DNA from: an uncultured virus (IMG/VR IMGVR_UViG_3300028590_000007) | Taxonomy: Duplodnaviria; Heunggongvirae; Uroviricota; Caudoviricetes | IMG/VR virus record: IMGVR_UViG_3300028590_000007 | Direction: 5' to 3' (one strand) | DNA length: 61,346 nt | In this document: positions 7,888 through 22,905 of the stretch, piece after piece | How positions within the stretch are numbered: position 1 is the first letter of the stretch | Layout: the number at the start of each line of letters is the position of its first letter | Translations under genes and position numbers: made by a program | The notes under the pieces: model-generated | Database searches by the model: none | The model's input: the letters and a program-made list of their open reading frames with translations, nothing else | Told to the model about the DNA's origin: nothing

Positions 7888-9747
7888 TTAATATGGAATG
7901 TAGTTATTGCTACCCGGTTGTCCCGGAGATTGCAAGAAACTATTAAGCAAGCCAGTTGCTCTGTTGATCCAAGGCACTTGGGGCGGCTCGTGTTCCATGA
8001 ACTGAGCTTCAGCGGAAGGTGTGGCAGGCATCAAGTGTCTGCGAACCTGCGTGGCGTAATTGTGCATCGTGGAACCATAAGGGGTACTACGAAGATTTAT
8101 GGGAGTTTGAATGCCCTTCTGACCTTGGGCGCCTACGCGGTTACCGATTCTAGCCGTTTGGATGTTCAGCTGACGAGGACCCATACCGTTGATGGCGTCT
8201 TGCTGAGGCTGCATGGAAGCAGACTTCACAGCATCAAGTGTCTTGCGAATACGATCCATCGAACTGCCAAGATTGATGGAGCCAAGGATGGGATCTTTCT
8301 TACCATCACCTGCACCGGATTTCCCAGCCAGCTTCTGCGCTTCTTGATTGATCTTGAGGTTGATGTTCTCTTCCTGCAGTTTATCCAGCTTAGACTGCAA
8401 ACTATCGGTGTCTACTTGCCCTGCGGCACCGCCGGCAGTTGCAAGAGGCGAGTTTGCCATGGAGGCAGGGGTACCCGGAGGGAGCGTAGCAGGATCAACT
8501 GCGTTGTTAGCAGGAGCACCAGCACGCATATTAGGATCATAAGCAGGCATAGTCGTAGCTGCTTTCTTCACATTGAGCTTGTCGATCTCGCCAGACAGCA
8601 TGTTCATCTTTGTTTGTTCGCGTTTATGCACAGCCTTGCGTTTTTCTTCGGCTTCCAGTTGAGCTTGCTTCTGGGCTTCCATTTGCTCCTCTTGTTGGAG
8701 CTTGGCTGCCTCTTGCTGCTCTGACCATTGTTGCTTACGTTCGCCGGATTCGGTACGAAGTTGGCGACGAACGTCCTTACCGACATTACGTTGGATAGCG
8801 CCGGAGATAGGGATCTGTTCCTTCAGAGGGATACGCAGCTTGGTCTCGATGTCTCCGGGCTTACGTGTAGGAAGCGTCACAGACATGTCTCCAAGGTCTT
8901 CAGTCTTCTTACTGGACCTCCACTGGGCAATAGCAGTACCGAGGGCACCAAGGGCACCTACGCCTGCAGCAACACCCAATCCAGCTTTCATACCGGGGGA
9001 CATACCTTCTTTCGGAGAAGAGACCGCTTTATTGATGTTGGGAATGTCCAACTGACTCAGCTTTTCATTACCCTTGAGTAGAAGATCCTTAGCAGGTATA
9101 GCAAGACCAGCAGCGACACCCTCAGCAGGACCAATACCTTTCCACACGCTACCAGCAGCAGCGCCGAAACCAGCATTGGTTGCCATCAGGTGACGACGAT
9201 GAGGGTCAGCCATCGCGTTGGAAAAGTTTTCAATAGGTCCCTTGCCTTCTCCATAGGTAGCATAGTCAAGAGCGGGACCGCCAGCAAGGGCACCTCCTGC
9301 CAAGTGGGTAAGCCAGCTCATGACCTTCCCCTTATCTGCAGCTTTCTTTACGACATACGGGATATGCAAGGCGTCTGCGAGGTGCTCAGACTCTTTGTTA
9401 CCTTCAACAATGAGAGCCTTAACCTTATCCACAGAAGCACTCTTGATATGCAGCATCTTGCTGACAGCTTCCTTAGCCTTACCGCAACCACGATGCTCAG
9501 GGAGAAGTCCAATGGTGTAGTAACCTACTTTCACCATACCTTCCTTGCGTTCTTGCCATCCCACAAACCCCGCAGGAGACTTGTCGGAGGCCGAACGAAT
9601 CATGTAGATGTCATCATGGGAATCAATGTTCAGACCATATGGCCACTTCCATGGAGCCTCGTCGTAGATAGTCTTGAGAACACCTTCGAGGATAGTACGG
9701 GAACTGGTGTCTGAAGCAGACTTGGAAAACGATTCAACCAGATACAT
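7888..9747 (-). CDS. GNAT acetyltransferase domain fused to Gly/Ala-rich, K-x-A-motif-containing putative virion protein
   Basis: AGFVGW...GYYTIGLLPEHRGCGKAKEAV...IVEGNKESEHL is a GNAT acetyl-CoA-binding signature; downstream hydrophobic Gly/Ala segments and coiled coil. Confidence 0.7.
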   Translation of the reverse strand: MYLVESFSKSASDTSSRTILEGVLKTIYDEAPWKWPYGLNIDSHDDIYMIRSASDKSPAGFVGWQERKEGMVKVGYYTIGLLPEHRGCGKAKEAVSKMLHIKSASVDKVKALIVEGNKESEHLADALHIPYVVKKAADKGKVMSWLTHLAGGALAGGPALDYATYGEGKGPIENFSNAMADPHRRHLMATNAGFGAAAGSVWKGIGPAEGVAAGLAIPAKDLLLKGNEKLSQLDIPNINKAVSSPKEGMSPGMKAGLGVAAGVGALGALGTAIAQWRSSKKTEDLGDMSVTLPTRKPGDIETKLRIPLKEQIPISGAIQRNVGKDVRRQLRTESGERKQQWSEQQEAAKLQQEEQMEAQKQAQLEAEEKRKAVHKREQTKMNMLSGEIDKLNVKKAATTMPAYDPNMRAGAPANNAVDPATLPPGTPASMANSPLATAGGAAGQVDTDSLQSKLDKLQEENINLKINQEAQKLAGKSGAGDGKKDPILGSINLGSSMDRIRKTLDAVKSASMQPQQDAINGMGPRQLNIQTARIGNRVGAQGQKGIQTPINLRSTPYGSTMHNYATQVRRHLMPATPSAEAQFMEHEPPQVPWINRATGLLNSFLQSPGQPGSNNYIPY

Positions 9748-9784
9748 AGGACCCTTGTATCTTACTACCTTTCTGCCTTATTTG

Positions 9785-9830
9785 AAATAAAAAAGAAAAG
9801 ACTACCCCACCGGAAAGGCAGGGTAGTCTT
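9785..9830 (-). terminator. Rho-independent terminator
   Basis: aagactaccc/gggtagtctt stem plus long U-tract. Confidence 0.8.
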
Positions 9831-9849
9831 GATGATACCATCCCAGAAA

Positions 9850-11520
9850 TTAATCGAACTGGTTGATGTGATACTCGGTGATCGTGTCGGTGGTGGTAAC
9901 ACGCACACGAATACCGTGCCCATCGTTCATACAGAGACCAGAAGCAGAACCAAGGGTAGGTCCTTCCATCTTGAGAGTCCTTGAAAGGGCCTCGATGGAC
10001 TTGCGCACTTCGTGGTACTCGGATTTCAACATCTCAGGGAAAATGCATCCCGTAGGCTGTTGAGTATCCTGTGCTCCATCGAGAATGAACAAGGCAAACT
10101 GAGGATGATGGCTGAAGGCGGATTCATCGTTCCAGTGGGCTGGGTTCAGCGAAATCGCATTGACCTTCTTCCACGTTTGTCCGCGCAGTTTCCATTGGGA
10201 GGCTGCGGTAGGGGCGGTGTAGGTATAGTAAGAGAAGGGGTTGCGTTTTTCATGGTTATCCCACTGTAAGATAGGTTCGGCCTTCGAAAGCGATGCCGTA
10301 ACAAACGACATGAAGTATCCTTGGAACGGAATGTATGCTTCGATACTGACGGCGGTGGGCAGCACAGTGCGGCGGAAACGAGTCCACGTAATGTTGGTAC
10401 TACCGTGCACAGCACGAGGTGTGCGGGGGTTCGGTGGGGTTTGCTTGGTAGCAACCTTTCCAAACAATCCCGAGGTAGGGTTATTCGTGGGTTTGGTTGT
10501 GTTGGGTAGGACAGAGGGAGTCCACACCGTCCTGATTTCGTTCAGTTTTGCAAAGCGCCGACGGAAAGCCCCTGCAGCTCCGAGCTTGGTGACGATCTCT
10601 TCGGCTCGCTTGACGTTCTGAGCACCGGGAGGAGTCGATGGACGATTGAACTTGGTTGGATCAAGCCGGTCCCTCATGATGTTCTGGATGTGCTTCAGAG
10701 TGCTACCCTTTTGCACTTCCTCCAGAAGGTTCCCCGCAGCATTGCTCTTGATGTGATTGAAACCAGCAGGAGCCTGCGCCGAGCGCAACCACAGGAACCG
10801 ATCACGTTTACGGGCTGTAGTTCTGTACAACTCATCGTGCAGGTTCTTGAACCACTCGATCTGACCTTGGATCTTCTCTGCGCGGAACAGTTTGTCTGCT
10901 GAAGCGATGTTGTTAGCCGTGGTAGCCTCAGCGCGAGTGAAGGTTGCCAAAGCCGATTTGAGGATACGGAACTCTTCCTTGCTCGCAGCATGCATCTGTT
11001 CGGCACTCTTGGTGAGACCTTTGTAGATGAGGTGAGAAGGAGGGGAAACCGCCATGTGCTGCCAGTCACCGGTTTTGGCGTCTCCCCACTCCTTGTCGGC
11101 GGAGTAGAAGACACCACTGATGGTACCGCTCTCGACGTACTTCTTCATCGCCCGAACAGACTCAACGGTCTCGCCGGGTACACCATCCAGATTTCCCCAC
11201 ATAACGGAACGCAGGTTGAGGGTTTCCGGGTCAATGGTCACGAGGTTACCGTAGCGTTCGACGAAACGTCGGCAAGAATCGCAGCGATGCTCGGCGCGTG
11301 CTTGTTCGTTGTCCACGTGATGCAGGAAGGTCTTGTGCAGATCGACGCCTGAAGAAGGCGTGACCGTGAACAGGATAGTGCCTTTGTCAGCGACAGCTTC
11401 GGCAAATGCTTTGCGTTGTCGCTTCAGGAAGTTGTGATATGGACGAGAGTCCTTATCAGTGCGAATTGCAGGTATAGCGGTCAGTGAAACCGCTGCAGGG
11501 GGTTGTGTCTTTTTAGCCAT
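9850..11520 (-). CDS. conserved phage hypothetical protein (HxCxxCRxF motif)
   Basis: 556 aa ORF; EHRCDSCRRF, RRFAKL and WDxxEKRNPFSYY motifs recalled from uncharacterised phage proteins. Confidence 0.8.
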   Translation of the reverse strand: MAKKTQPPAAVSLTAIPAIRTDKDSRPYHNFLKRQRKAFAEAVADKGTILFTVTPSSGVDLHKTFLHHVDNEQARAEHRCDSCRRFVERYGNLVTIDPETLNLRSVMWGNLDGVPGETVESVRAMKKYVESGTISGVFYSADKEWGDAKTGDWQHMAVSPPSHLIYKGLTKSAEQMHAASKEEFRILKSALATFTRAEATTANNIASADKLFRAEKIQGQIEWFKNLHDELYRTTARKRDRFLWLRSAQAPAGFNHIKSNAAGNLLEEVQKGSTLKHIQNIMRDRLDPTKFNRPSTPPGAQNVKRAEEIVTKLGAAGAFRRRFAKLNEIRTVWTPSVLPNTTKPTNNPTSGLFGKVATKQTPPNPRTPRAVHGSTNITWTRFRRTVLPTAVSIEAYIPFQGYFMSFVTASLSKAEPILQWDNHEKRNPFSYYTYTAPTAASQWKLRGQTWKKVNAISLNPAHWNDESAFSHHPQFALFILDGAQDTQQPTGCIFPEMLKSEYHEVRKSIEALSRTLKMEGPTLGSASGLCMNDGHGIRVRVTTTDTITEYHINQFD

Positions 11521-12472: not shown

Positions 12473-12547
12473 TGGTACCCCGTCTAGGAATCGAACCTAG
12501 ATCTACCGCTTAGAAGGCGGCTGCTCGATCCATTGAGCTAACGGGGC
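12473..12547 (-). tRNA. tRNA-Arg(UCU)
   Basis: GCCCCGT/ACGGGGT acceptor stem, TAGCTCAATGGA D-arm, anticodon loop CTTCTAA, GGTTCGATTCC T-arm, encoded CCA. Confidence 0.96.
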
Positions 12548-12556
12548 TGAAGTGGG

Positions 12557-13819
12557 TTAGAACGCTTGGTACATCCGTTTACCGGAACGCTTCGAAGGGG
12601 TGAGCCTCAGGGTGGAGCCGTCGACATGCGTAATAAGAACCGAGGAGTCCGTATTGCGGATGATGCTGGCGATCTCACGGTTATACCAAGTGAGGGAACG
12701 GCTGTAGCTGCCTACGCGTGCATTGGGGTTATCCTCGTCCGTGTCATCAGTTTCAGCACGAAGGTACTGAACGTTGATGTAGTCGTCTTCATCAGGACCG
12801 AATTGCTGGAACGGAGAGGCAAACGACGCTTTGTAGAAAGCTGGAACTTCTTTGATATACTTCAGAAGTTTCTCGTCGACACTATCAAGGGCAGAAGCAA
12901 TACCGTAACGCTTGGAGTTGCGGACGATATTGCGGATGGAGTAAGCGTAAGCAGCCGCGTGCTTGTCCTTCTCCTCCAGCTCGACGAAGTTATCGACCAG
13001 AGCAAGAACCGAAGTGCGCAGCTCGGCATCGAATTCAACACTCTCGTCGCTCTCGACATTGAGGAACGAAAGGAACTCCGAAGGAGGTTCATTGAACATC
13101 TTGGCTTCATTGATGATCGCCATCAGGGAGTCCAGCGACAAACCGAAGATAGTCTCGGCCGCCTTGATAACCGCATCCCGAAGATCACCCTCTGGGATCT
13201 GGTCACAGATGACAGCACGGAAAACGTCCTGACTGAGGGCGTCGTAACGCTTGTGGTAACGAACACGCCCCGGACGACTGTTGATGAAGGTGTTGACGTT
13301 CGGGTCGTTCGAGGTGAGGACGAACAAGTGGGCAGTCGAAGAAGTACCGTCAAGAAGCGTGAGAAGATGAGCGGAATCCTCCTCGCTGTAGATCTTCTCG
13401 AACTCGTCCATGATGACGACGCATTTGACAGGGATCTTCTGTAGGAAGTCCGAGAACTCTGAACCTTTGAAGAACGAGTTGATAAGCAGGACGGGCGACT
13501 TGGACTTGAGTCCGATCATCTTGGCGGCGACAGACTTGCCCGCACCCGATTTGCCACTGAGGAGAACGCCGATACCACGTTCAAGTTTGTGCCAAGCGGC
13601 GAGAGCGCGGTCAACGAACTTGTCGTCTTCACCGTAGATCTTTTTCGGAAGTTCGAGATCTTCTTTGATTTTCAGGTAGAAACCACTCATGTCGGCTGCG
13701 ACTTCATACACGCCGACTGGGAGACCCTTGACGGGAGTGGATGCGCCATTGGTAAAACGAACTTCATTACCATTGGTGACGGAGTAAATGGGCGCTACAG
13801 TTGTTGTTTTTTCGGACAT
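12557..13819 (-). CDS. AAA+ ATPase (single AAA module)
   Basis: Walker A GKSGAGKS, Walker B VVIMDEFEK, LLTLLDG, TSN sensor, SRPGR Arg finger; start reassigned to ATG 13819. Confidence 0.92.
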   Translation of the reverse strand: MSEKTTTVAPIYSVTNGNEVRFTNGASTPVKGLPVGVYEVAADMSGFYLKIKEDLELPKKIYGEDDKFVDRALAAWHKLERGIGVLLSGKSGAGKSVAAKMIGLKSKSPVLLINSFFKGSEFSDFLQKIPVKCVVIMDEFEKIYSEEDSAHLLTLLDGTSSTAHLFVLTSNDPNVNTFINSRPGRVRYHKRYDALSQDVFRAVICDQIPEGDLRDAVIKAAETIFGLSLDSLMAIINEAKMFNEPPSEFLSFLNVESDESVEFDAELRTSVLALVDNFVELEEKDKHAAAYAYSIRNIVRNSKRYGIASALDSVDEKLLKYIKEVPAFYKASFASPFQQFGPDEDDYINVQYLRAETDDTDEDNPNARVGSYSRSLTWYNREIASIIRNTDSSVLITHVDGSTLRLTPSKRSGKRMYQAF

Positions 13820-13835
13820 ATTGGGTGCTGAGAGG

Positions 13836-13895
13836 AAATAAAAAAATAGAAAGGTGAAATGGAGGAGTGCCGCCATGCCGACACCCCTCCATCTC
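13836..13895 (-). terminator. Rho-independent terminator
   Basis: atggaggggtgtcg/cggcactcctccat stem followed by ttcacctttctattttttt. Confidence 0.8.
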
Positions 13896-14207
13896 GTACG
13901 GTCTTGCAACCAACAGCAAGGAAACCCGTATCGCGTAAGCAGAACCGTTGCTCACTGGTTACGAGTTTCGAAGACAACCACATTGGAGGTTGACGCTAGG
14001 GTGACTTCTACCTTGCACTTACCATTAGGCAGATGCTTATACCTTATACCTGAAATTAGTAACCACGGCAGGGCGTGTTAACTCCTGCTATCCTCTCCTG
14101 ACAACCGATGGCCCGGTTTAAGAGGATCACCTGTTTGAGGCAGGTGGTTCGACACTTACGAACTTCGAGGTTTAACCAACAGACGACCCACCAAGGTCGA
14201 CTGAAGA

Positions 14208-14996
14208 TTAGCCCGGACGATTGGCTTGGGCGTGGCGGCGGCTGTTTGCAGCAGCACGCATGGCCTCGACGGTTTCTCGGCACATTTCTTTGTGCTCTTC
14301 CGAGTGTCGGGTCCAGTAGCCACCACCGCTGCCTGCGTGGATGATCTGCTTGGCGTAGGCTTCCCGTTCTTCAACGGAATTGCCGTGACCAGCAGCGATA
14401 TGATCCACCCAAAGGACACCGGCATGCTGCAGCTTCTGCATGACCTGAATGTGCCCATCGGAACCGTTGCCAAAACTTGCGACCGCGTATGGTGTGATCG
14501 GTTTTGGTTGTTGGTCCCAGCGTCCGAATGATGCCGTCAACGAAGAGGAGGAAGCACGCTCGAACTTGCGTTCAAAGTAGGAAACGGCGAGAGCCAGATC
14601 CGTACCGCGTTTCTCCATTTCCTCAGGGGTAAGCAGCTGATAACAGACCCGCATGATCGTGGCGTTCTCAGGCCACTCACTCACGGGCAGGTCCTTTTCA
14701 CGACCTTTGTACTTGCGCATATCTCCGCTACCCATCACTTTGATAATATGCATCTCGCGTTCGATAGGCATACTAATAAATTTCGGGTGCAGAATTCCAT
14801 CTTTGACCCCACCGAAGAGTTCGATGGCACCGACGAGGCCACGGCGGACAGGGTAGAACCCGGTCAGGCGTACATTGACTTTGGATTGCTCAACCATTGG
14901 CGGGTTGAGTTCTCCGAAAAGTCCTTGATGGATGGCTTTGACGGATGCCTCGGTTTCGTGAGGTGCTGCAGGGGTTTCGTTCTTATGGTCGGACAT
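14208..14996 (-). CDS. hypothetical protein
   Basis: 262 aa ORF. Confidence 0.8.
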   Translation of the reverse strand: MSDHKNETPAAPHETEASVKAIHQGLFGELNPPMVEQSKVNVRLTGFYPVRRGLVGAIELFGGVKDGILHPKFISMPIEREMHIIKVMGSGDMRKYKGREKDLPVSEWPENATIMRVCYQLLTPEEMEKRGTDLALAVSYFERKFERASSSSLTASFGRWDQQPKPITPYAVASFGNGSDGHIQVMQKLQHAGVLWVDHIAAGHGNSVEEREAYAKQIIHAGSGGGYWTRHSEEHKEMCRETVEAMRAAANSRRHAQANRPG

Positions 14997-15031
14997 GGTA
15001 TGCTGTGTGTGAGAAAGAGTGTATCTCTTTC

Positions 15032-15047
15032 CAAATTTATATAGCGC
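15032..15047 (-). promoter_or_regulatory. candidate promoter element GCTATATAAATTTG
   Basis: Near-identical to 5919-5934; 40 nt upstream of ATG 14996. Confidence 0.4.
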
Positions 15048-15065
15048 AAAATCAGGGGGTATTGC

Positions 15066-15102
15066 GGAAGGGGTTACGGTGCGCCAAACCGTAGCCCCTT
15101 CC
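15066..15102 (-). terminator. strong hairpin, probable terminator of the Ubl operon
   Basis: ggaaggggttacggt/accgtagccccttcc inverted repeat downstream of the last operon gene; weak U-tract. Confidence 0.5.
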
Positions 15103-15126
15103 TTGAATTATGCCAGAATGCCGATG

Positions 15127-15300
15127 TTATACCTTTGCGAGCTGTGCGAGACGCTTGTCACGCTCCCGTGCAATCCGACGTTTCGACTTTGCGGAGACGA
15201 ATTCGTAGGTTTTGACTTTGGCGAAGATAGCCTCCACTTCTGCGGGGGTACTTGCTTCTTGGATTTGCTTGCGGGTGCTCTTTGAATGGGTGTTGGACAT
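15127..15300 (-). CDS. small basic helical protein (57 aa)
   Basis: Read manually: MSNTHSKSTRKQIQEAST...RERDKRLAQLAKV. Confidence 0.7.
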   Translation of the reverse strand: MSNTHSKSTRKQIQEASTPAEVEAIFAKVKTYEFVSAKSKRRIARERDKRLAQLAKV

Positions 15301-15341
15301 GAGTCAGGAATGTAAGGGTCAGTTATGTATGGAAGACAAAA

Positions 15342-17006
15342 TCACAGGCTTTGAAGGTACTGCCCGATGGCAGCTGCATTCTTGCCCATGATCGGACTGT
15401 TCTTCGTGTCGTACATTACCGTTTGCTGGATGAAGCGGAGAGCTTCTTCAGCGCCTTTGCGGAGATGCTTGTTCTCAGAATCGGAATGCAGCGTAAGCAT
15501 GCGGTCGATCATGAGACGAGATTGATCTGAAGGCTTATTCAGCTGCGGCAGACTGTTGAGGGTCATTGCAATGTCCTTGTGGGTAGCGACACCCACTTCT
15601 GGAAGAACATTGATCATGTGCTGCAAACCAGAGATGGCTTCGTAACGCGACAGGGAAAAGCGCGACGACACTTCGAGGAAGAGGTGTGGAATCTTCCAGT
15701 CGGCGGAATTGATAGCTTCGTTGTTGTCAACGTCGGTATCAATAGTCGTCGCCGAATCTGTTCCAATAGGCTTCCCATTGCGAGTAATCATCGATTCCGA
15801 GATCCCCGTCACGATAGTCTTTGGGCGAGCGGGCACGCCACCCGCGCCTCCGGAAGGATAGGATGAACCATGACCACTGTAAGTCGTTCCTCCACTATAG
15901 CGACCACCTTGGCCTCCTCCGTAGTAGTTGCCACCACCATGATGGCTGGAATAGTTTGACTTTACTTCGGTGATACAGTCTTTCCACTCTTCGGGGAAGC
16001 CCTCGTCCTTGATGTGGGTTACCCAGTGCAACGACAGCTTCTCGCGGACTTCCGCAGGAAGGGAGGCATCCCAACCGGGAACTGCGATGATGTGACCGAA
16101 GTCCTTCACCGGTACCAGCTCGGAGTTCGCAGGCAGAACGCGGTTACCTTGGTTGTCATACTCCGCAGACATCTTCACCCGGATACGGGCATGGATGTCG
16201 ATAGGATACACAGCCATCTTGCCGACGGTGATATGGAAGCCCTGCTTGGTCGTCTCGTCGTCCTTGTCGGTCGCAGAGTCGAAAGCGCCCATATGAACGT
16301 GGTTGTGGGTTGTACCGTGCCAGTCACCGGAGTTGACGCCAAACTGCTCACGCAGCTTTGCGAACACTTCAAGGTTCTCCTCGGTCTCGTAATCCACCTT
16401 GACCGTCATTGCTCCACGTGTGATGCGCTGATGGAATGGGAAGTGGATGTATGCACCAGCCTCAGTGAGAAGGTGCGAGATGTGGGTCTCGGCGTTGTAG
16501 GTCTTGACCGACCAGATGTGGTACGCCACGATCTGTTTCCAGTCGTCGTACGTGATCTTCGGAGCGAGGATCTTCAGCTCCGGAGCTGCTGATTCCATGT
16601 TGAAACCAGCCGGTGGCGTTTCAGTCCACCCACGGAAGAACCTGTTTTCACGCGGAGCATAGAGCTTGCTGCCGCTGATCCGCAGACCACCTGCAGGCAT
16701 TGCGACCTGTACGTACCGTGGATCCTCTTCTTCTGGGGCTGGTTCGGACGTAACAGTGATTACCGGTTGCTTGGCAACTGCAGCCGTTGAGGCTCCTGCT
16801 GTCGGCGGTACCATCGGGTTGACGCGCACTGGTTCTTCCGGGTTACTGAGGTCTGCGTTGGCAATGGCTTCGTCAACAGTTCGATTGGTGTTGTTACCCT
16901 TACCTCCTCCGCGAGGACCACCTTGGTTCCGTTTGGACTTGTCGATGGTCTGGCCTTGCCCGCCCTTTCGGTTGGACCCTCCTTTGTTGTGATTGGTTTT
17001 GGCCAT
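15342..17006 (-). CDS. JAB/JAMM metallopeptidase (deubiquitinase-like) with disordered flanks
   Basis: Upstream Glu (NAETH) and GTTHNHVHMGAFDSATDKDDE...GFHITVG = E...HxH-x7-S-xx-D; start reassigned to ATG 17006. Confidence 0.88.
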   Translation of the reverse strand: MAKTNHNKGGSNRKGGQGQTIDKSKRNQGGPRGGGKGNNTNRTVDEAIANADLSNPEEPVRVNPMVPPTAGASTAAVAKQPVITVTSEPAPEEEDPRYVQVAMPAGGLRISGSKLYAPRENRFFRGWTETPPAGFNMESAAPELKILAPKITYDDWKQIVAYHIWSVKTYNAETHISHLLTEAGAYIHFPFHQRITRGAMTVKVDYETEENLEVFAKLREQFGVNSGDWHGTTHNHVHMGAFDSATDKDDETTKQGFHITVGKMAVYPIDIHARIRVKMSAEYDNQGNRVLPANSELVPVKDFGHIIAVPGWDASLPAEVREKLSLHWVTHIKDEGFPEEWKDCITEVKSNYSSHHGGGNYYGGGQGGRYSGGTTYSGHGSSYPSGGAGGVPARPKTIVTGISESMITRNGKPIGTDSATTIDTDVDNNEAINSADWKIPHLFLEVSSRFSLSRYEAISGLQHMINVLPEVGVATHKDIAMTLNSLPQLNKPSDQSRLMIDRMLTLHSDSENKHLRKGAEEALRFIQQTVMYDTKNSPIMGKNAAAIGQYLQSL

Positions 17007-17010
17007 GGTA

Positions 17011-18441
17011 TTAGATGAACTGCGGAGTAAGCTGATCGGGTTTGAAGGTATTGATTGCCAGAATTTTGCTATGAGCTTTCTCAAAGGCTACGATAGGTTG
17101 AGGATCTTTCGGATGTGCGGCAGCTGCAAATTCCGCGAAATGCTTCGCAGCAGTTGCATCACGCAGGTGTATCCCTGCATGAGAGTTGTCACCAGTAGCA
17201 CTGATGGTCGAGGTGAATGACGTGGGACTCACGTTCTTGGAAGTGTGCGTAGGGAAGTACATCACACCATAGAAGAACGGGCCGTCGATCCACTGATTGA
17301 AGAACTCCTGTGCGTAACCCCAGAGGGCTTCGGCGTTCAGGATGTCTCCGGGCATCTTGTTGATCGCAGTACTGTTTTGAGCCGTGAGGATCGAAAGCTG
17401 ATACGAACTGTCATACGGAGCACGTTGAACGCTGCGAATCCTGATGGCACCACGAGTAGTACCCTCTTGGGAGAGAGGGCCGCCCAGCATCTTCTCGATA
17501 CCGACGCGTGTGGCTTCTTGGAAAGTCGCAGCACCACCTGCAGAGGGTACAACGAGGTACGATACCGACAGCGAGACCATCTTGGGCTTGAACGCAGGTG
17601 CGTCCCAGATGGACCGCGCCATGTTCTTGTTGATAGTCATCTGTGAAACACCGCCTCCAACATCCCCAAACAGAGTGGAGAGACGCTGAGAACCAGCGAT
17701 GGAGTGAGTGATACCAGCGAGAGGTGAGTTCTCGAAGATGAAGATCGGACGCAGCAGGGCGACGATAAACTTCCGTGAATCCGCCGGACCATAGTAGACA
17801 CCGTTGGTAACAGGGATGGTTGCCTGAATGCAGTCAGCGATAGCCATCTTGGTCTCGCTGTTGCGGAGGGCCAGAATATGAGAGATATCCTGCAGAATGT
17901 GGGCTGGAGCACCCAGACGAGCGCGACCTTGGTCACCCCCACCTGTACTGGCAGAATTCTTCAGCATTCGCAGCATGTTCTTGTTAGCGTCCTCCTTTCT
18001 ACGCAAGAACGAGAATTTTGGAGATTCGTAAACTTCCATGAGATCTTTGTGGGTGATCTCATCGAACTTCGTATTCATGAATGCGGCAGCAGCTGGTTCC
18101 CAGCTTTGCTGAATCATGCGGGCGACAACCTTGGAACGGAAGTCAGCGCCGTAGGCAGTAGGCTCTGGGACAAACGCAGGGATGTCTGCAAGGGGAATAC
18201 CTTGGATGGCGTCGGTAGTCGAGGTAGTCCACGTGCCGCTGCTGAAGGTCAGGAGACGAACAGGCGACCCACTAGAACCGACGATTGTCGAGGTTACCGG
18301 GGGAGTCGGGATCGAGAACTGCCAAGCTGGAGCTGGAGTGGCTGGAGGTGGCGGAGTTTCGACTGCTGCAGCGGCTGGGGCCTTGTCCTTTTTGGCTGCA
18401 GTTTTGGTTACCCTCTTGGTGGCTTTCTTGGTAGTACTCAC
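17011..18441 (-). CDS. hypothetical protein inside the Ubl operon
   Basis: 476 aa; start overlaps the E1 stop; Lys/Pro/Ala-rich N-terminal arm. Confidence 0.85.
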   Translation of the reverse strand: MSTTKKATKRVTKTAAKKDKAPAAAAVETPPPPATPAPAWQFSIPTPPVTSTIVGSSGSPVRLLTFSSGTWTTSTTDAIQGIPLADIPAFVPEPTAYGADFRSKVVARMIQQSWEPAAAAFMNTKFDEITHKDLMEVYESPKFSFLRRKEDANKNMLRMLKNSASTGGGDQGRARLGAPAHILQDISHILALRNSETKMAIADCIQATIPVTNGVYYGPADSRKFIVALLRPIFIFENSPLAGITHSIAGSQRLSTLFGDVGGGVSQMTINKNMARSIWDAPAFKPKMVSLSVSYLVVPSAGGAATFQEATRVGIEKMLGGPLSQEGTTRGAIRIRSVQRAPYDSSYQLSILTAQNSTAINKMPGDILNAEALWGYAQEFFNQWIDGPFFYGVMYFPTHTSKNVSPTSFTSTISATGDNSHAGIHLRDATAAKHFAEFAAAAHPKDPQPIVAFEKAHSKILAINTFKPDQLTPQFI

Positions 18442-19157
18442 GTCAGTTTCACTTCAGTTGCTTCTTCATGCACTTCCGCTTTCGGGGCTTCCATTGGAAT
18501 ATCCTTGAAGCGGACACTGGTGACACCGTTGCGGGTGCCCTTGATTTCTGCTGGCACATTCTCCAGACTTGCGCAACGCTGCAGAGCATTGAACAGCCAG
18601 AGCATGAAGCTACCAGCGTTGTGGTTGGCAATCGGCAGTTGAGGTGCTGACTCGATTGCTTCGACGGTATTGCAGCTTTCGCCGGGGCCACGACCATCAG
18701 GGACGATGTTGTGGCGCACGTATGGGTCGCGATAGGTATCACCCCATTCCGGTATGAATAGGTATGCCTCGGGGTCTTCTTCTTCATTGGCACCCCAGAT
18801 GATCGGGATGTCCATGCGTTCCGCGATCTTTTTCGCGTAGCAGCGTGCGTCGTGGTTGTCGACAGCCACGAACAGAATCTTGACATCGTCAGGAAGCTCG
18901 GTCATGTCGGAGATATAGGTCTCCATGCATGTGATCTTCTTGTCGGTGAACTTATCGTACATCGAGGCGTAGACTTTCGCCTTGTTTTCCGAGTCACCAA
19001 AGTGTGCGCCGATTTGACGAAGAGTATTCTTCTTCTCAAACTTGTCGCCATCGATGAGGAGCAGGTTGTGCGTCATCATGAGGGCGGGCAGGATGTGGGA
19101 GGTGACTCCTCCACAACCGATAATGGCGATTGTATCAAAGGATCGTTCGATCTTCAT
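18438..19157 (-). CDS. E1/ThiF-family adenylyltransferase (Ubl-activating enzyme)
   Basis: IIGCGGVTS, IDGDKFEKKNTLRQ, NKA, AVDNHDAR; candidate catalytic Cys in GESC followed by PQLPIAN; no CxxC Zn sites. Confidence 0.93.
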   Translation of the reverse strand: MKIERSFDTIAIIGCGGVTSHILPALMMTHNLLLIDGDKFEKKNTLRQIGAHFGDSENKAKVYASMYDKFTDKKITCMETYISDMTELPDDVKILFVAVDNHDARCYAKKIAERMDIPIIWGANEEEDPEAYLFIPEWGDTYRDPYVRHNIVPDGRGPGESCNTVEAIESAPQLPIANHNAGSFMLWLFNALQRCASLENVPAEIKGTRNGVTSVRFKDIPMEAPKAEVHEEATEVKLT

Positions 19158-19166
19158 GAGTGGGTG

Positions 19167-19382
19167 TTACAGAGACTTGGACTGGTAGGTGGGGTTGTGT
19201 TTAGCAAAGATATCCCCGAGGATGCGGAGAGTTTTGCTAGGGATTTTGGGTGCTGGTTTCGGAGTCGTGAACTCCGTGATTCCTGCGGACAGGATATCAG
19301 CTGCGGCTTTGTCAGTGGGGGCTGCGCGGGCTTTAGCTGCTAGTGCGAGGAAGAAATCCCCGTCTTTTTTCTTAGCTGCCAT
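19167..19382 (-). CDS. small hypothetical protein inside the Ubl operon
   Basis: 71 aa ORF filling the E2-E1 gap. Confidence 0.7.
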   Translation of the reverse strand: MAAKKKDGDFFLALAAKARAAPTDKAAADILSAGITEFTTPKPAPKIPSKTLRILGDIFAKHNPTYQSKSL

Positions 19383-19385
19383 TTA

Positions 19386-20336
19386 TCAATCCCAGATAGG
19401 AGGGAGGGTTGCGGTGACCGTGCGAGCAATGGTTTTGGGGAACACAATGTGTAGATAGGGAGCAAGATCCCCTTCGTCAGCAATGCGTACTTCAGCGGTC
19501 ATACCTGTCATCGTCTTGGAGACATCGAGGTTACCGGGAGATTCTTCGAGGTCGATGAAGACGTCGTTGAGACCGCGTGGTCCGAAAGCACCACGGGAAA
19601 CCTGCGGGGACATACAGATGCGCCCGTCGTCGAAGATGTTATAAAGCGGAGGCTGATACAGGCGCTTGGTGGACTGCTCGACCATGTAGATGTACTGGGA
19701 GACATATCCCGGTTCACTGCGAGAACCAGCCTGCTCGGGATGGCTCTGACGTTGAACGAACATCACTTTGTCAAAGCCACACTCCTTGGCATTGATCGCG
19801 CACTTCCAGTTCATGGAGTTCTGGTTGAGATAGTGTCTGGAGTACTCCAGACCACCGCGATCCATATTGCTGGTGTATGGCTTGAACTTGATGGTTTTCG
19901 AAGCACCATCCCAGTAAGGAACAAATGCACCGTTCCAAGTGCAGTAGTCCATGATCCAGATCTGCCAGATTTCACCGGCACGTTTCCACATCGACCATTT
20001 GATGTCTTGTGCGACACCATCCACCTGAACCATCCGTTCAGTGGCCCTCATGATAGGTTCGAATGTGTCGCCACCAGTGATGTGCGAAGCGGCGATCTGT
20101 TCCACTTCCTCAATGGTGATTTTGGCAAGGGTGAACTCACCGGGTTTGACCGATGGCATGAAGGCCATCATTGACGTTGCTGGTTTGTCCACTCCGATCA
20201 CGAAACTACTCGCAGCAGGACGCTGGATAGCTTCATAAACGATTGCATCGCCAGCAGGCGGTGCAGGTGGCGGACCTCCAGCGATATCAGCTGCGACTGC
20301 GGCAGCTTCTTCTTGTGGGGCAGCGGTTGCGCTCAT
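19386..20336 (-). CDS. prokaryotic E2-like (UBC fold) protein
   Basis: LYQPPLYNIFDDGRICMS...SPGNLDV resembles the P-x-x-N-[IV]-x-x-DG-x-IC catalytic signature of prokaryotic E2 family D (PRTRC protein B type). Confidence 0.8.
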   Translation of the reverse strand: MSATAAPQEEAAAVAADIAGGPPPAPPAGDAIVYEAIQRPAASSFVIGVDKPATSMMAFMPSVKPGEFTLAKITIEEVEQIAASHITGGDTFEPIMRATERMVQVDGVAQDIKWSMWKRAGEIWQIWIMDYCTWNGAFVPYWDGASKTIKFKPYTSNMDRGGLEYSRHYLNQNSMNWKCAINAKECGFDKVMFVQRQSHPEQAGSRSEPGYVSQYIYMVEQSTKRLYQPPLYNIFDDGRICMSPQVSRGAFGPRGLNDVFIDLEESPGNLDVSKTMTGMTAEVRIADEGDLAPYLHIVFPKTIARTVTATLPPIWD

Positions 20337-20351
20337 TTAGGGTGTTGTAGA

Positions 20352-20398
20352 TAAAAACAAAGAAAGAGGGGTGACACACGTTTCCGCATGTCACCCCC
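20352..20398 (-). terminator. Rho-independent terminator between Ubl and E2 genes
   Basis: GGGGTGACATGCG-GAAA-CGTGTGTCACCCC followed by TCTTTCTTTGTTTTT. Confidence 0.85.
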
Positions 20399-20481
20399 GC
20401 AGTTTGTTGCCACCTCCGATATGGACTATCAAAGGTAGCCCGTGAGTGAGGTTCAGTCTTCCCGAACCTCACTCTGGATAA

Positions 20482-20931
20482 TTATGCCAATGCCTTGGAC
20501 GAGGCGACGGTTTGGACAGTGATGACATCACCGGCCGAAAGCGTCACGTTGGATTCAGAGCCGTTGACGAACACGCGGATGTTCGAAGGAAGAGCGAAGT
20601 CCTCCTTGAACTGACGGTCGTTTTGAAGCGTAGAGGTGGTGGTGCCGTACGGGACGTAGAAGTCGCTGCGGTTGCCATTGACATGGACAATCACTTTGAC
20701 ACGTGCAGCTGCCTTGGACGAGGCAACGGTTTGCACTTCGACGATGTCCGAAGCGGCGAGTCGCTTGTCCGCAGTAGAACCGTTAACGATAATACGGATG
20801 TTCGAAGGAAGAGCGAAGTCCTCCTTGAACTGCCGATCACTGGCGAGAGCCGAGGCGTAGGTACCGGTTGGAACCCACCAGGTGTTGGTATTGCCGTTGA
20901 TTTTGACTGCGATTTTGATGCGAGCTGCCAT
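20482..20931 (-). CDS. tandem di-ubiquitin-like (beta-grasp) precursor protein
   Basis: 149 aa = Met + 2 x 73 aa gapless units + LA; beta-grasp pattern; each unit ends VQTVASSKA; first gene of the E2/E1/JAB cluster; start reassigned to ATG 20931. Confidence 0.85.
   Translation of the reverse strand: MAARIKIAVKINGNTNTWWVPTGTYASALASDRQFKEDFALPSNIRIIVNGSTADKRLAASDIVEVQTVASSKAAARVKVIVHVNGNRSDFYVPYGTTTSTLQNDRQFKEDFALPSNIRVFVNGSESNVTLSAGDVITVQTVASSKALA
20491..20928 (-). repeat. 219-bp tandem coding repeat (2 units)
   Basis: Identical block cggatgttcgaaggaagagcgaagtcctccttgaactg recurs about 219 nt apart (near 20577 and 20796). Confidence 0.95.
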
Positions 20932-21080: not shown

Positions 21081-21527
21081 TTAGGCAGCAACCTTTGGAG
21101 TAAGGTCGATGAACTGAGCGGCGGCGCCAATTCCATGGCTGGTGATGATTTCGCGAACACGTCGCTTGCCGCTAATGGAGAGACCGCGAACGGGGTTCCA
21201 GTAGTAGCCAGTGTCGTGTAGCTGCGTCAGATCCCGGAGGAATCCAACGGGAAGGTCTGCGACGGCGTGGTGCAGGTAGTGGCGGTATCGAGGCGACAGC
21301 AACGATTCAGCACCAAGACCTGAGCCATTCACACCGTCGGCCAACATCTGCTCAACGTCGGCGAATCGTCCAAGAGCGCAACACTCACCCTTCAGGTTGA
21401 AGAGTTTGTTAGGCACCCGACGCTTGGTATCCGCACCGTAATGCGAGATGGTGTCGTCGAGGGCATGCGCCATACGATGGGATTGAGGAATTTCGGAGCT
21501 GTAGCAAGGGGCGAGATTTAGAGCCAT
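21081..21527 (-). CDS. hypothetical protein
   Basis: 148 aa ORF (CCALGR, LTQLHD motifs). Confidence 0.8.
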   Translation of the reverse strand: MALNLAPCYSSEIPQSHRMAHALDDTISHYGADTKRRVPNKLFNLKGECCALGRFADVEQMLADGVNGSGLGAESLLSPRYRHYLHHAVADLPVGFLRDLTQLHDTGYYWNPVRGLSISGKRRVREIITSHGIGAAAQFIDLTPKVAA

Positions 21528-21652
21528 TCTCTTTTATTAGGTGATGGGGTTGTTACATCACCAGATGGACCCCGGAACTGTCCTTCTGATGTCTCCGACC
21601 AAAGGCACTGATCGTGACGATAATATACCTGAATACCACAAGAAGGGTTATC

Positions 21653-21856
21653 TTAACCGAGGCTCAGCGTATAGCACACAACTCGGTAATTCGCAGGGTT
21701 GCGATTGTAGCGGCTCTTCTCTTGTCGAGCGAGGCTACGGGTCGGTTGTACGGACGCAATGGTACCGTTGTCTTTACGTAGAACAGCCCAGAGACGTTCT
21801 GGCTCTGGCAGGTTGTAGATAGTACCTTCTTGTTTTTTGATGCTAGTGCTTTGCAT
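21653..21856 (-). CDS. small hypothetical protein
   Basis: 67 aa ORF starting 4 nt after the upstream stop. Confidence 0.6.
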   Translation of the reverse strand: MQSTSIKKQEGTIYNLPEPERLWAVLRKDNGTIASVQPTRSLARQEKSRYNRNPANYRVVCYTLSLG

Positions 21857-21859
21857 TGT

Positions 21860-22642
21860 TTATGTTCCCAGTAACTCACACTGTCTCTCGAACGGGAGTG
21901 TCGAGAAAAGTGTGAAACCAGTTCCCATCGCTTCCACGGCTCGTGCCGCTTCAGACCCCGCTACTTGTCCTGACCGTAGCGGTTGGGCGAAACTTTTATC
22001 GGTGGTCCGGAAAATCAGACCGTGCGGATCGAACGGAAGTCCGATGTCATCCGCCTCCTTTTTGGAGAAGACGACCTTGCTGAAACGCAAATCGTGATCT
22101 TGGATCAGTTTGATCTGCGTACTTTCAGTAGACGCAACCAGAGAGAAATTGAGTGGGACCTTATCCCGGTTGTTCACCCAGTAGCCGAGGCTAGTAGTCT
22201 GGGCGTGGAACTTGACCTCAGGATGTTCGGATGCTGCTTTCATCCAAGCCTTGAAGTAGTTCTCTGAAAAGAAGTCGCCCGAATAATGGACGATCATTTC
22301 CTTTGCATCCTTGGGGATGTTATTGCTGATGATGCCAGCCATCTCATCAACCGAGTCTCCTGCTGCAGCGAGCACTGCATAGTTCCTCTGGCGTCGATTG
22401 TAGATGTGGGGCGCCAGTTCCATGACGGCGCTATAGCACGTAAACCTTTCACCTGACTCTAGTGCAAGGGTGGACACGATCTCTCCCTCTAGGCGCTGAC
22501 TGTGCACCTTGGAGAGAGAACCTACGCCGCGATATGGACAGGTCCAGCCAGCGGGTAGGGAGAAGGTCAGGACATTTTTATCGACGTATGGTGCTCCAGC
22601 TTCAAAGAAGAGGCTATCGTCGCACAGGGTGAGATCAATCAT
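21860..22642 (-). CDS. GP88-like phage protein (degenerate radical-SAM-like)
   Basis: FSLPAGWTCP...CYSA...HYSGDFFSENYFKAW...PEVKFHAQT...PLNFSLVAS pattern. Confidence 0.7.
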   Translation of the reverse strand: MIDLTLCDDSLFFEAGAPYVDKNVLTFSLPAGWTCPYRGVGSLSKVHSQRLEGEIVSTLALESGERFTCYSAVMELAPHIYNRRQRNYAVLAAAGDSVDEMAGIISNNIPKDAKEMIVHYSGDFFSENYFKAWMKAASEHPEVKFHAQTTSLGYWVNNRDKVPLNFSLVASTESTQIKLIQDHDLRFSKVVFSKKEADDIGLPFDPHGLIFRTTDKSFAQPLRSGQVAGSEAARAVEAMGTGFTLFSTLPFERQCELLGT

Positions 22643-22905
22643 GTGGTGAGAATAAAACTAGCTACGTACCCACGAACATGTGGTGGGCAGGCTTCCAGTC
22701 TTGGATATATCACCAATGAAGATTTGTCGTTTGCCGGTCGATAGAATACCACGGGAAGCTGCTGTTCCCTAAATGCCAAAAACGTCGAGGGGTTAACCTC
22801 GACGAGACGACAGTGTTCAGCGAGAGCATACCGACTACCCTCGCTTTTAACAAACTCTTCAATCTCTCGGTTAGAGATCTTGTTCGAGAATAATTTCCGT
22901 TTCAC
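22639..22905 (-). CDS. hypothetical protein
   Basis: 88 aa ORF, ATGA-coupled to the next gene. Confidence 0.65.
   Translation of the reverse strand: MKRKLFSNKISNREIEEFVKSEGSRYALAEHCRLVEVNPSTFLAFREQQLPVVFYRPANDKSSLVIYPRLEACPPHVRGYVASFILTT

Follow-up and report, generated by a model that had tools for sequence, protein, structure and literature searches.

Analysis of a 61,346-nucleotide stretch of DNA from an uncultured virus of the Caudoviricetes (IMG/VR record IMGVR_UViG_3300028590_000007), referred to below as the window, points to an operon that probably encodes a cassette for the conjugation and deconjugation of a ubiquitin-like protein (Ubl). The cassette is phage-encoded and appears to have been vertically inherited in a clade of large soil phages. 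This reading is carried by the folds and families of the Ubl, of an activating enzyme (E1) and of a JAB/JAMM peptidase, by the conservation of catalytic residues, by the gene order and by the phage setting. The conjugating enzyme (E2) is the weakest part of the assignment and is supported in part.

Operon layout and genomic setting

The virus record has 212,352 bp, is complete according to CheckV and contains the window as bases 75681-137026; every long open reading frame (ORF) of the window lies on the minus strand. Between positions 20931 and 15127 seven co-oriented ORFs follow one another on this strand, encoding a tandem Ubl, an E2-like protein, a 71-residue protein, the E1, a 476-residue protein, the JAB peptidase and a short basic protein. 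A preliminary description, made from the letters and the ORFs alone, had listed the first six of these ORFs as co-oriented and tightly packed, and all of its coordinates hold in the sequence. The E2-like stop codon is separated from the start of the 71-residue ORF by 3 nucleotides, and the latter ends 9 nucleotides before the E1 start. The GTG start of the 476-residue ORF overlaps the E1 stop by 4 nucleotides, and its own stop precedes the JAB start codon (ATG at 17006) by 4 nucleotides; the protein in this middle position is predicted to be translationally coupled to both E1 and JAB. The sole long spacer (145 nucleotides) lies between the tandem Ubl and the E2-like gene. It contains a terminator-like hairpin at 20398..20367 (minus strand), which was found as a consensus match only and has a 14-bp stem with 8 G-C pairs and a T-rich tail. 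This hairpin is a candidate attenuator that may keep the tag in excess over the enzymes.

The operon was also said to sit among core genes of a large phage, and the complete 212-kb virus indeed carries RNA polymerase, DNA polymerase, ligase, primase and recombinase genes. PHROGs matches in the window comprise an RNA polymerase beta-like protein, DNA ligase, thymidylate synthase, a helicase, a UvsX-like recombinase, DNA polymerase and primase. The phage is distant from known relatives: its DNA polymerase is at most 23% identical to that of any of the 10 matching GenBank phage records, and the operon gives zero DNA matches against 50,697 phage records. Eight sequencing runs contain the stretch, all of them soil metagenomes, and there are no RNA runs among those listed.

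Likewise, the claimed lack of ParB, CD-NTase and sulfur-transfer genes is borne out across the complete 212-kb genome, which shows no match to ParB_N, to SMODS (CD-NTase), or to rhodanese, PP-loop ATP_bind_3 and Aminotran_5 (cysteine desulfurase). Each of these searches gave matches in 4-14 of 14 control genomes. Exactly one ThiF match is present in the complete genome. A PADLOC scan of the operon proteins yields only weak matches of the E1 to E1-E2 models of the cyclic-oligonucleotide-based antiphage signalling system (CBASS), the best at E = 2.3e-5. PHROGs has nothing for the Ubl, the E2-like protein, the 71-residue ORF, the 476-residue protein or JAB. No regulator family of Pfam or NCBIfam matches an operon protein, CapW and CapH/CapP not having been sought by name.

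Related loci

Related loci were reached via homologues of JAB and E1. A survey of synteny in related phages, which the preliminary description had proposed, shows that the order Ubl, E2-like, E1, middle protein, JAB recurs in four loci from three further lineages: L002 (a 42-kb IMG/VR contig), L004/L005 (metagenome contigs) and L011 (a 64-kb viral contig). Across these same-order loci the operon proteins are 26-37% identical, which indicates that the cassette is old in the lineage. The surroundings are partly kept as well: two genes upstream of the operon are common to the window, L002 and L004, and in L004 a phage RNA polymerase beta gene lies downstream, as in the window.

A second arrangement consists of an E2_D-like protein (sometimes inside an 824-residue protein), JAB, E1 and a Ubl ending in Lys-Gly (K-G). 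It is complete in L012 and partial in L013-L015, where JAB adjoins E1 in all three loci, a K-G Ubl follows E1 in L013 and L015, and no E2 was recognised; L016 has the E1 only. Without a recognisable Ubl, this arrangement (E2-JAB-E1) is also found in cultured phages, namely Salmonella phage Arash (gp248c-gp246c, OQ632216) and Vibrio phage D69, with the same cluster in the Vibrio phages D181 and D148. Its genes carry the annotation hypothetical or structural protein. Of the 50,697 phage records, 4 contain an Arash-like E2 protein. According to the Arash paper, gp246 and gp248 are among 116 proteins found by mass spectrometry of phage preparations. Since this list includes ribonucleotide reductases, it shows expression rather than location in the virion. 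The words ThiF and ubiquitin have no occurrences in that paper.

Two further observations concern these loci. In L013 the first E1 is followed after 1.6 kb by a second E1-like ORF (9163-10044, plus strand, HMM E = 5.9e-8). In Vibrio phage D69 (L009) a gene annotated as host RecBCD nuclease inhibitor (1254-1595) precedes the E2_D-JAB-ThiF cluster by about 3.4 kb and shares its strand, which hints at an anti-defence neighbourhood.

The Ubl tag and its tail

The tag is encoded at 20482-20931 (minus strand) as a tandem di-Ubl of 149 residues. Residues 1-75 and 76-149 each make up a ThiS/MoaD-like beta-grasp unit; the two units agree in 44 of 72 residues (61% identity), and the repeat period is 219 nucleotides. 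The NCBIfam matches of this protein are all under cut-off (MoaD_arch at E = 8.9e-5 with 22.9 bits against 49.5, ThiS at 0.066 and SAMP1 at 0.091), and Pfam ThiS (PF02597) gives no match at E <= 0.1. Its orthologues in L002 and L004 do exceed the Pfam ThiS cut-off of 22.5, with 28.5 and 23.9 bits, respectively. In addition, the ESM Atlas's own model of the Ubl (pLDDT, the predicted local distance difference test, 0.71) aligns over 118-136 residues to tandem Rad60-SLD/ubiquitin proteins, with template modelling (TM) scores of 0.58 (over 136 residues) and 0.51. The assignment of the tag as a tandem beta-grasp protein, made earlier from the letters, is supported by these family matches and by the predicted model.

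The new feature is the ends of the units. In the window each unit closes with VQTVASSKA, and two more residues (LA) follow the second. S-x-K-A is invariant at both unit ends in all four di-Ubls (window, L002, L004 and L005), and the tails match within each di-Ubl but vary between phages (VASSKA, ATSQKA, RTSSKA). Identical tails on both repeats suggest a polyubiquitin-like precursor, and tails that are the same within a phage and different between phages are as expected if one enzyme reads both sites. The di-Ubl may therefore be a precursor that JAB cuts at both places.

This pattern extends to the other loci. K-A or K-G stands at the C-terminus, or no more than 2 residues from it, in 8 of 8 distinct Ubl genes examined, and is exactly terminal in five of them: L004/L005 and L011 with K-A, and L012, L013 and L015 of the second locus group, where the Ubl-like proteins close with x-K-G. 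One residue follows K-A in L002 and one follows K-G in L014. The Ubl of L011 is a single unit of 63 residues whose ORF stops right after K-A. No C-terminal Gly-Gly is present; the tail is S-x-K-A here and x-K-G in related phage Ubls. This comparison of sequences suggests that the mature Ubl ends in K-A or K-G.

Some of these proteins are longer. The Ubl-like protein encoded 3' of E1 in L013, a 150-kb viral contig (7638-8351, plus strand), has two Rho_N-like helical modules (E = 7.6e-12) before its beta-grasp domain and ends in G-R-K-G. The Ubl of L012 has a similarly long N-terminal part.

The E1 enzyme

The E1 gene (18438-19157, minus strand) encodes a single-domain adenylating enzyme of the ThiF/MoeB type with 239 residues. 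Pfam ThiF (PF00899) matches residues 9-171 with 52.9 bits against 28.1 (E = 3.6e-14). In the four orthologues aligned, two of which are near-identical, G14xG16G17, N44, R47, Q48, K59, D100, N101 and C162 are invariant (4/4). The motifs GxGG, NxxRQ and DN and the candidate catalytic cysteine that had been pointed out before are all among them, the cysteine being Cys162 at nucleotides 18672-18674. By analogy with MoeB and ThiF, we take these residues to be the nucleotide loop, the Arg/Gln/Lys phosphate contacts and the Mg-binding Asp.

A profile of the four orthologues matches 34 PDB sequences. The best of these are MccB (1.8e-11), the ThiF-type protein 9egb (7.7e-11), the SUMO E1 UBA2 (2.2e-6), BubCD (6e-5) and ThiF (8.5e-5), and further matches include TcdA, the NEDD8 E1, UBA5 and PaaA. 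The alignment to ThiF stops at profile position 159, which is ThiF 185. Because of this end point C162 presumably lies next to ThiF Cys184, a placement that derives from the end of the alignment rather than from a residue-by-residue view. Together, the family match and the conserved motifs support a ThiF-family adenylating enzyme. Other searches were less productive: a single-protein scan of IMG/VR with the E1 returned no relatives, and tblastn returned Arash only.

The JAB peptidase

The last enzyme of the cassette is a JAB/JAMM (MPN+) metallopeptidase of 554 residues, encoded at 15342-17006 (minus strand) with its start ATG at 17006. It consists of a disordered basic N-terminus, an MPN core (approximately residues 105-350, nucleotides 15957-16694), a Gly/Tyr/Ser-rich linker (352-433) and a helical C-terminal domain (435-553). 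The expected motif E..HxH-x7-S-xx-D, noted already in the preliminary description, comprises E173 and H234-x-H236-x7-S244-x2-D247 (nucleotides 16266-16307). Seven homologues were found, on contigs of up to 201 kb, and E173, H234, H236, S244 and D247 are invariant in all eight sequences (8/8). The same holds for a block in the N-terminal part (R119, N121, F123, F124 and W156).

Profile and family libraries do not recognise this protein. Pfam Prok-JAB (PF14464) gives no match for the window JAB and matches 2 of the 8 family members, the best at E = 0.057, and the family profile finds one chance match only among PDB sequences. In addition, tblastn with the homologue P0007 gave no match and a search of genome contigs gave no JAB relative. 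The AlphaFold2 model has a mean pLDDT of 61, and in most blocks of 10 residues its core reaches 70-91. Its top Foldseek match is 8tyx_B, the deubiquitinase BilC in a bacterial Ubl-deubiquitinase complex (E = 3.3e-4). VIA-align also places BilC first (8tyy_B, Z 11.4, root-mean-square deviation 3.4, 148/162 aligned), followed by AMSH-like sst2 (4jxe_A, 10.2), Pyrococcus PfJAMM1 (5ld9_A, 10.0), Cap3 (8.3) and Rpn11 (8.1); eight chains reach Z >= 8. The BilC and JAMM matches of the model, together with the invariant motif, identify the predicted fold and active site as those of an MPN+ isopeptidase.

The C-terminal domain of JAB resembles ATP-synthase OSCP-like bundles at Z about 7, which are probably generic matches. 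As regards the Gly/Tyr/Ser-rich linker (window 16005-15765), its composition rather than its sequence is kept in the homologues P0003-P0009, and it may be a flexible or self-associating region.

The E2-like protein

The 316-residue protein encoded at 19386-20336 (minus strand) is probably a catalytic E2-like enzyme, resembling Prok-E2_D. Its first 50 residues form a disordered Ala/Pro-rich N-terminus. The candidate catalytic Cys241 is located in P230-x-x-N233-x7-C241 (nucleotides 19614-19649), and the stretch NIFDDGRIC, to which the preliminary description had drawn attention, contains N233 and C241. Around this motif two family models match under their cut-offs, both restricted to residues 222-242: Pfam Prok-E2_D (PF14460) at E = 0.0023 (18.1 bits against a cut-off of 25) and NCBIfam PRTRC_B at E = 0.018.

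An exhaustive phmmer search found seven homologues, and in an alignment of nine sequences (window, these seven and the L002 orthologue; 23-28% identity) N176, P230, N233, C241, N269, P293, P312 and W315 are invariant (9/9). PxxN-x7-C is also present in 5 of 6 E2 candidates from other phage loci. Asn and Cys are 8 residues apart, just as in the HPN...C loop of eukaryotic E2 enzymes. Of the 30 feature neighbours in the ESM Atlas, 19 are clusters, mostly viral, in which 14-26% of the members bear the Prok-E2_D label; by structure, a Prok-E2_D cluster ranks first, with a TM score of 0.52 by row and 0.39 by query. An hhalign comparison of the family with Arash gp248c gives E = 3.1e-4 at a probability of 39%, with the PxxN..C and SPxN.DL motifs both aligned.

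The model of the protein (pLDDT 68) has a sheet much larger than that of a minimal ubiquitin-conjugating (UBC) domain. In a wide VIA fold search 7 of the 50 rows listed are E2 enzymes, at Z 3.0-3.7 (1yf9_C 3.7, 1yrv_A 3.6, 8pmq_E 3.3, 1zuo_A 3.3, BubB 9eav_D 3.1, 6jb6_A 3.0 and 8pql_C 3.0). In BFVD there were two significant matches, each an uncharacterised protein from an uncultured phage; the fold thus recurs in phages, and these matches do not name it. Searches with the single sequence were unproductive: tblastn gave no match, the IMG/VR scan no relatives and the word-index search only the protein itself.

The two non-conserved ORFs

Two ORFs of the operon change from phage to phage. The 71-residue ORF (19167-19382, minus strand) has no family match and no counterpart of detectable similarity in the related loci; its slot holds no ORF of at least 50 residues in L002 and an unrelated 52-residue ORF in L004. 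Between E1 and JAB lies the 476-residue orphan (17011-18441, minus strand), likewise without a family match. The same slot is occupied by proteins of 306/307 residues in L002/L004 and of 257 residues in L011, and no similarity is detectable between the 476-, 306/307- and 257-residue proteins. A single fast-evolving family was considered for this slot. Fast turnover of this kind would fit a protein that comes into contact with host factors, and the middle protein is a candidate specificity factor or substrate.

Comparison with known systems

Several bacterial systems combine the same kinds of proteins. One of them is class 6d, which we take to be the PRTRC cassettes of NCBIfam. As described by Iyer, Burroughs and Aravind in 2006 (PMC1779556), class 6d includes a Ubl with a conserved C-terminal Gly, an N-terminally extended JAB, an E1-like protein, an E2-like protein that lacks the HPN histidine and has an absolutely conserved His after the Cys, and a fast-diverging extra protein. 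By parts list the phage operon is nearest to this class, with which it agrees in its five separate genes, with a rapidly diverging extra protein too and a JAB with a conserved N-terminal extension (invariant Arg119 and Trp156). It differs in its setting (a lytic-looking jumbo phage against a bacterial mobile island), in its tandem Ubl with a K-A end against a single unit with C-terminal Gly, and in the E2-like protein, which has no invariant His after C241. The best family matches of the latter are Prok-E2_D and PRTRC_B. However, PRTRC_B (14.4 bits against 131.45) and PRTRC_ThiF (17.2 against 144.75) both stay under cut-off, the other NCBIfam models in the TIGR03735-TIGR03742 range (PRTRC_A, C, D, E and F) have no match at E <= 0.1 in the operon, and the complete 212-kb record is without a ParB-family gene.

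The likeness to Bil lies in the separate Ubl, E2, JAB and E1 genes and in the JAB fold, which is nearest to BilC. Type I Bil Ubls have two beta-grasp domains (PMC11601596, PMC11601603), as does the phage tag. The Bil E1 combines inactive and active adenylation domains with a mobile Cys domain (PMC11601596, PMC11601603), whereas the phage E1 is a single ThiF domain of 239 residues. Also, the matched tails of the phage Ubl units suggest cutting to monomers and not an ISG15-like di-domain tag, and ownership differs, as Bil defends the host by tagging phage proteins and the system studied here belongs to the phage.

Bub (types I and II, formerly 6E/DUF6527) is described as having Ubl-E2, JAB-E1 or E2-E1 fusions, a DUF6527 serine protease and oxyester (serine) intermediates, with Ubls of 1-3 beta-grasp domains whose precursor is cut by JAB to expose the Ubl C-terminus (PMC11601596). 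BubB and BubCD also turn up as matches of the phage proteins, at weak or moderate strength, in the structure and profile searches. Differences are that the phage genes are separate and that the phage E1 and E2 keep invariant cysteines; no DUF6527 match was found in a scan confined to 11 proteins of the window. Compared to type II CBASS with Cap2/Cap3, the phage E1 and E2 are separate and the genome is without SMODS. The clusters of Arash and D69 are likewise phage-encoded, with homologous E2-like proteins and JAB (hhalign E = 1.3e-4 for the latter), Prok-JAB above cut-off and ThiF present. Their order, E2-JAB-E1, is different, and a ThiS-like Ubl was found neither in the Arash record nor beside the D69 cluster.

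Summarizing, the cassette would work like the Bil, Bub, class 6d/PRTRC and CBASS kits, and since it lacks defining features of each of these, it belongs to none of them. Our literature search, to which the supplementary tables of the Bub and Bil papers did not belong, found no description of a phage-encoded Ubl-E2-E1-JAB operon. A 2021 preprint reports E1-like genes in Asgard-archaeal viruses, and the published accounts of Bil and CBASS Cap2/Cap3 show bacterial Ubl conjugation so far as a host weapon against phages.

Neighbouring genes

A 57-residue basic ORF lies 3' of JAB (15127-15300, minus strand); it has no family beyond a chance-level NCBIfam match at E = 0.081. Further 3', a tRNA-Arg gene (anticodon TCT, 12473-12547, minus strand) is located directly 3' of an AAA ATPase gene (12557-13909, phrog_2376). 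When the ATPase ORF is read at its greatest length, its 5' part contains a very strong hairpin (13856-13895, minus strand, 17-bp stem, 9 G-C pairs). Translation probably begins at a later Met, and the upstream transcription unit may stop at the hairpin. On the other side of the operon, three genes at 21081-22905 (minus strand) stand between the Ubl gene and a conserved 77-residue gene, and L002 and L004 are without them at this place. One of the three encodes a GP88-family protein (21860-22642, Pfam E = 4e-22). In L004 the RNA polymerase beta-like gene (12803-15748, plus strand) has a LAGLIDADG domain (E = 2.4e-7), which suggests an intein or a homing-endonuclease insertion.

Proposed mechanism and alternative explanations

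For each chemical step, the processing sites and the targets we infer the following course. The di-Ubl would be made in excess, with the hairpin 3' of its gene attenuating read-through into the enzyme genes. JAB would then cut after S-x-K-A, both at the unit junction and before the C-terminal extension, to give two Ubls of about 72 residues that end in Lys-Ala. The ThiF-type E1 would adenylate the C-terminal alanine, load the Ubl on Cys162 and hand it to Cys241 of the Prok-E2_D-like E2, so that the cascade would use thioester chemistry. The E2 would move the Ubl onto lysines of target proteins, with the protein encoded between E1 and JAB acting as specificity factor or first substrate, and JAB may also reverse the tagging. 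Our best guess for the role of the cassette is the modification of host proteins during take-over or counter-defence; an alternative is that the phage tags its own proteins.

A wider reading is conceivable as well, and we put it forward tentatively, as one that may well turn out wrong. The cassette would then represent a recurrent, so far undescribed virus-encoded Ubl-E1-E2-JAB class with two gene orders in at least nine phage lineages. Its polyubiquitin-like precursor would be cut by JAB after x-K-A or x-K-G and conjugated to host proteins for take-over or for disarming defences, and the gene between E1 and JAB would set the target.

A number of observations weigh against a working conjugation cassette. 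Neither an E3 nor a target could be identified in the data. The Ubl has a Lys-Ala C-terminus, against the Gly or Gly-Gly of characterised Ubls. The best PDB match of the E1 profile, MccB, adenylates a peptide and does not conjugate proteins. The 476-residue protein is an orphan that finds only itself in a search of 5.8 billion proteins. Further points concern the E2. Just 2 of its 9 family members match Prok-E2_D, with the window protein under cut-off, and the family profile has 0 matches among PDB sequences. Foldseek against the PDB returned nothing at E <= 0.001 for the E2-like model, and the E2 rows of the VIA search score no higher than unrelated ones (the top row, Z 4.2, is unrelated). 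Of the E2 assignment in the preliminary description, the NIFDDGRIC part has stood, its Cys motif being invariant in 9/9, but the profile matches stay under cut-off and the fold search gave no clear UBC match. The Foldseek comparison proposed there had the same mixed outcome, with a significant match for JAB and none for the E2-like protein.

One alternative explanation is that the kit is partial or decayed: E1, JAB and Ubl would be genuine, the 316-residue protein would be no E2, or a non-catalytic adaptor, and the E1 would transfer the Ubl directly to its target or perform adenylation of the MccB/PaaA type. The E2 evidence is under cut-off everywhere, and MccB and PaaA are indeed among the best PDB matches of the E1 profile. 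However, P-x-x-N-x7-C has the N-to-C spacing of the E2 loop, and is invariant in the family and recurrent in the other candidates. Moreover, both the feature and the structure neighbours in the ESM Atlas point to Prok-E2_D, and the E2 enzymes among the 50 VIA rows include BubB. We therefore regard a partial kit as distinctly unlikely. Even smaller is the chance that the operon is a sulfur-carrier pathway, in which the Ubl would be adenylated and thiocarboxylated to donate sulfur to a nucleic acid or cofactor, with JAB exposing the carrier C-terminus as it does in JAB-linked sulfur-carrier systems. The sole family matches of the tag are to sulfur carriers (MoaD, ThiS, SAMP1 and Pfam ThiS), and the E1 is of the short, single-domain ThiF/MoeB type with Cys162 at about the position of ThiF Cys184. 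Against this, the genome is without rhodanese, PP-loop thiolase and cysteine desulfurase, for which host enzymes could serve, and sulfur transfer has no place for a conserved E2-like protein whose Cys is invariant. The K-A/K-G end also departs from the Gly-Gly of known carriers, and tandem units with matched tails better fit the precursor of a protein tag.

A last alternative keeps the same chemistry and changes its purpose. The cassette would be a Bil-like defence carried by the phage for superinfection exclusion, tagging structural proteins of competing phages and neither those of the host nor its own. Defence systems often travel on mobile elements, the nearest solved relative of the JAB is BilC of the antiphage Bil operon, and bacterial Bil tags a phage tail fibre. 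On the other hand, relatives with only 26-37% identity have the cassette at the same position, surrounded by genes for replication and transcription, which looks like long vertical inheritance and not like a mobile defence island. PADLOC finds no defence match except the weak E1 matches to CBASS models, the operon proteins show no regulator-family match within the scope given above, and the E1 does not have the IAD-AAD-CYS architecture of BilD. This makes superinfection exclusion unlikely, and a conjugation cassette in service of the phage's own infection remains the reading we prefer.

Conclusions

What is new here is the ownership of the system by the virus and not by the host, the Lys-Ala C-terminus of the tag and its putative polyprotein-like precursor. 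If the K-A tag is conjugated, lysines that carry it would retain a single alanine after digestion with trypsin, and this would give proteomics a practical handle. The related clusters in the cultured phages Arash and D69/D181/D148 make the question testable. A complete kit that has long been kept in the core region of large phages would reverse the picture of a host weapon, in that the virus would be the one that tags proteins. Such virus-run tagging would parallel the manipulation of ubiquitin by eukaryotic viruses and would add a new layer to the conflict between phages and their hosts. Overall, our results suggest that some large phages themselves tag proteins in a way so far described only as bacterial anti-phage defence.

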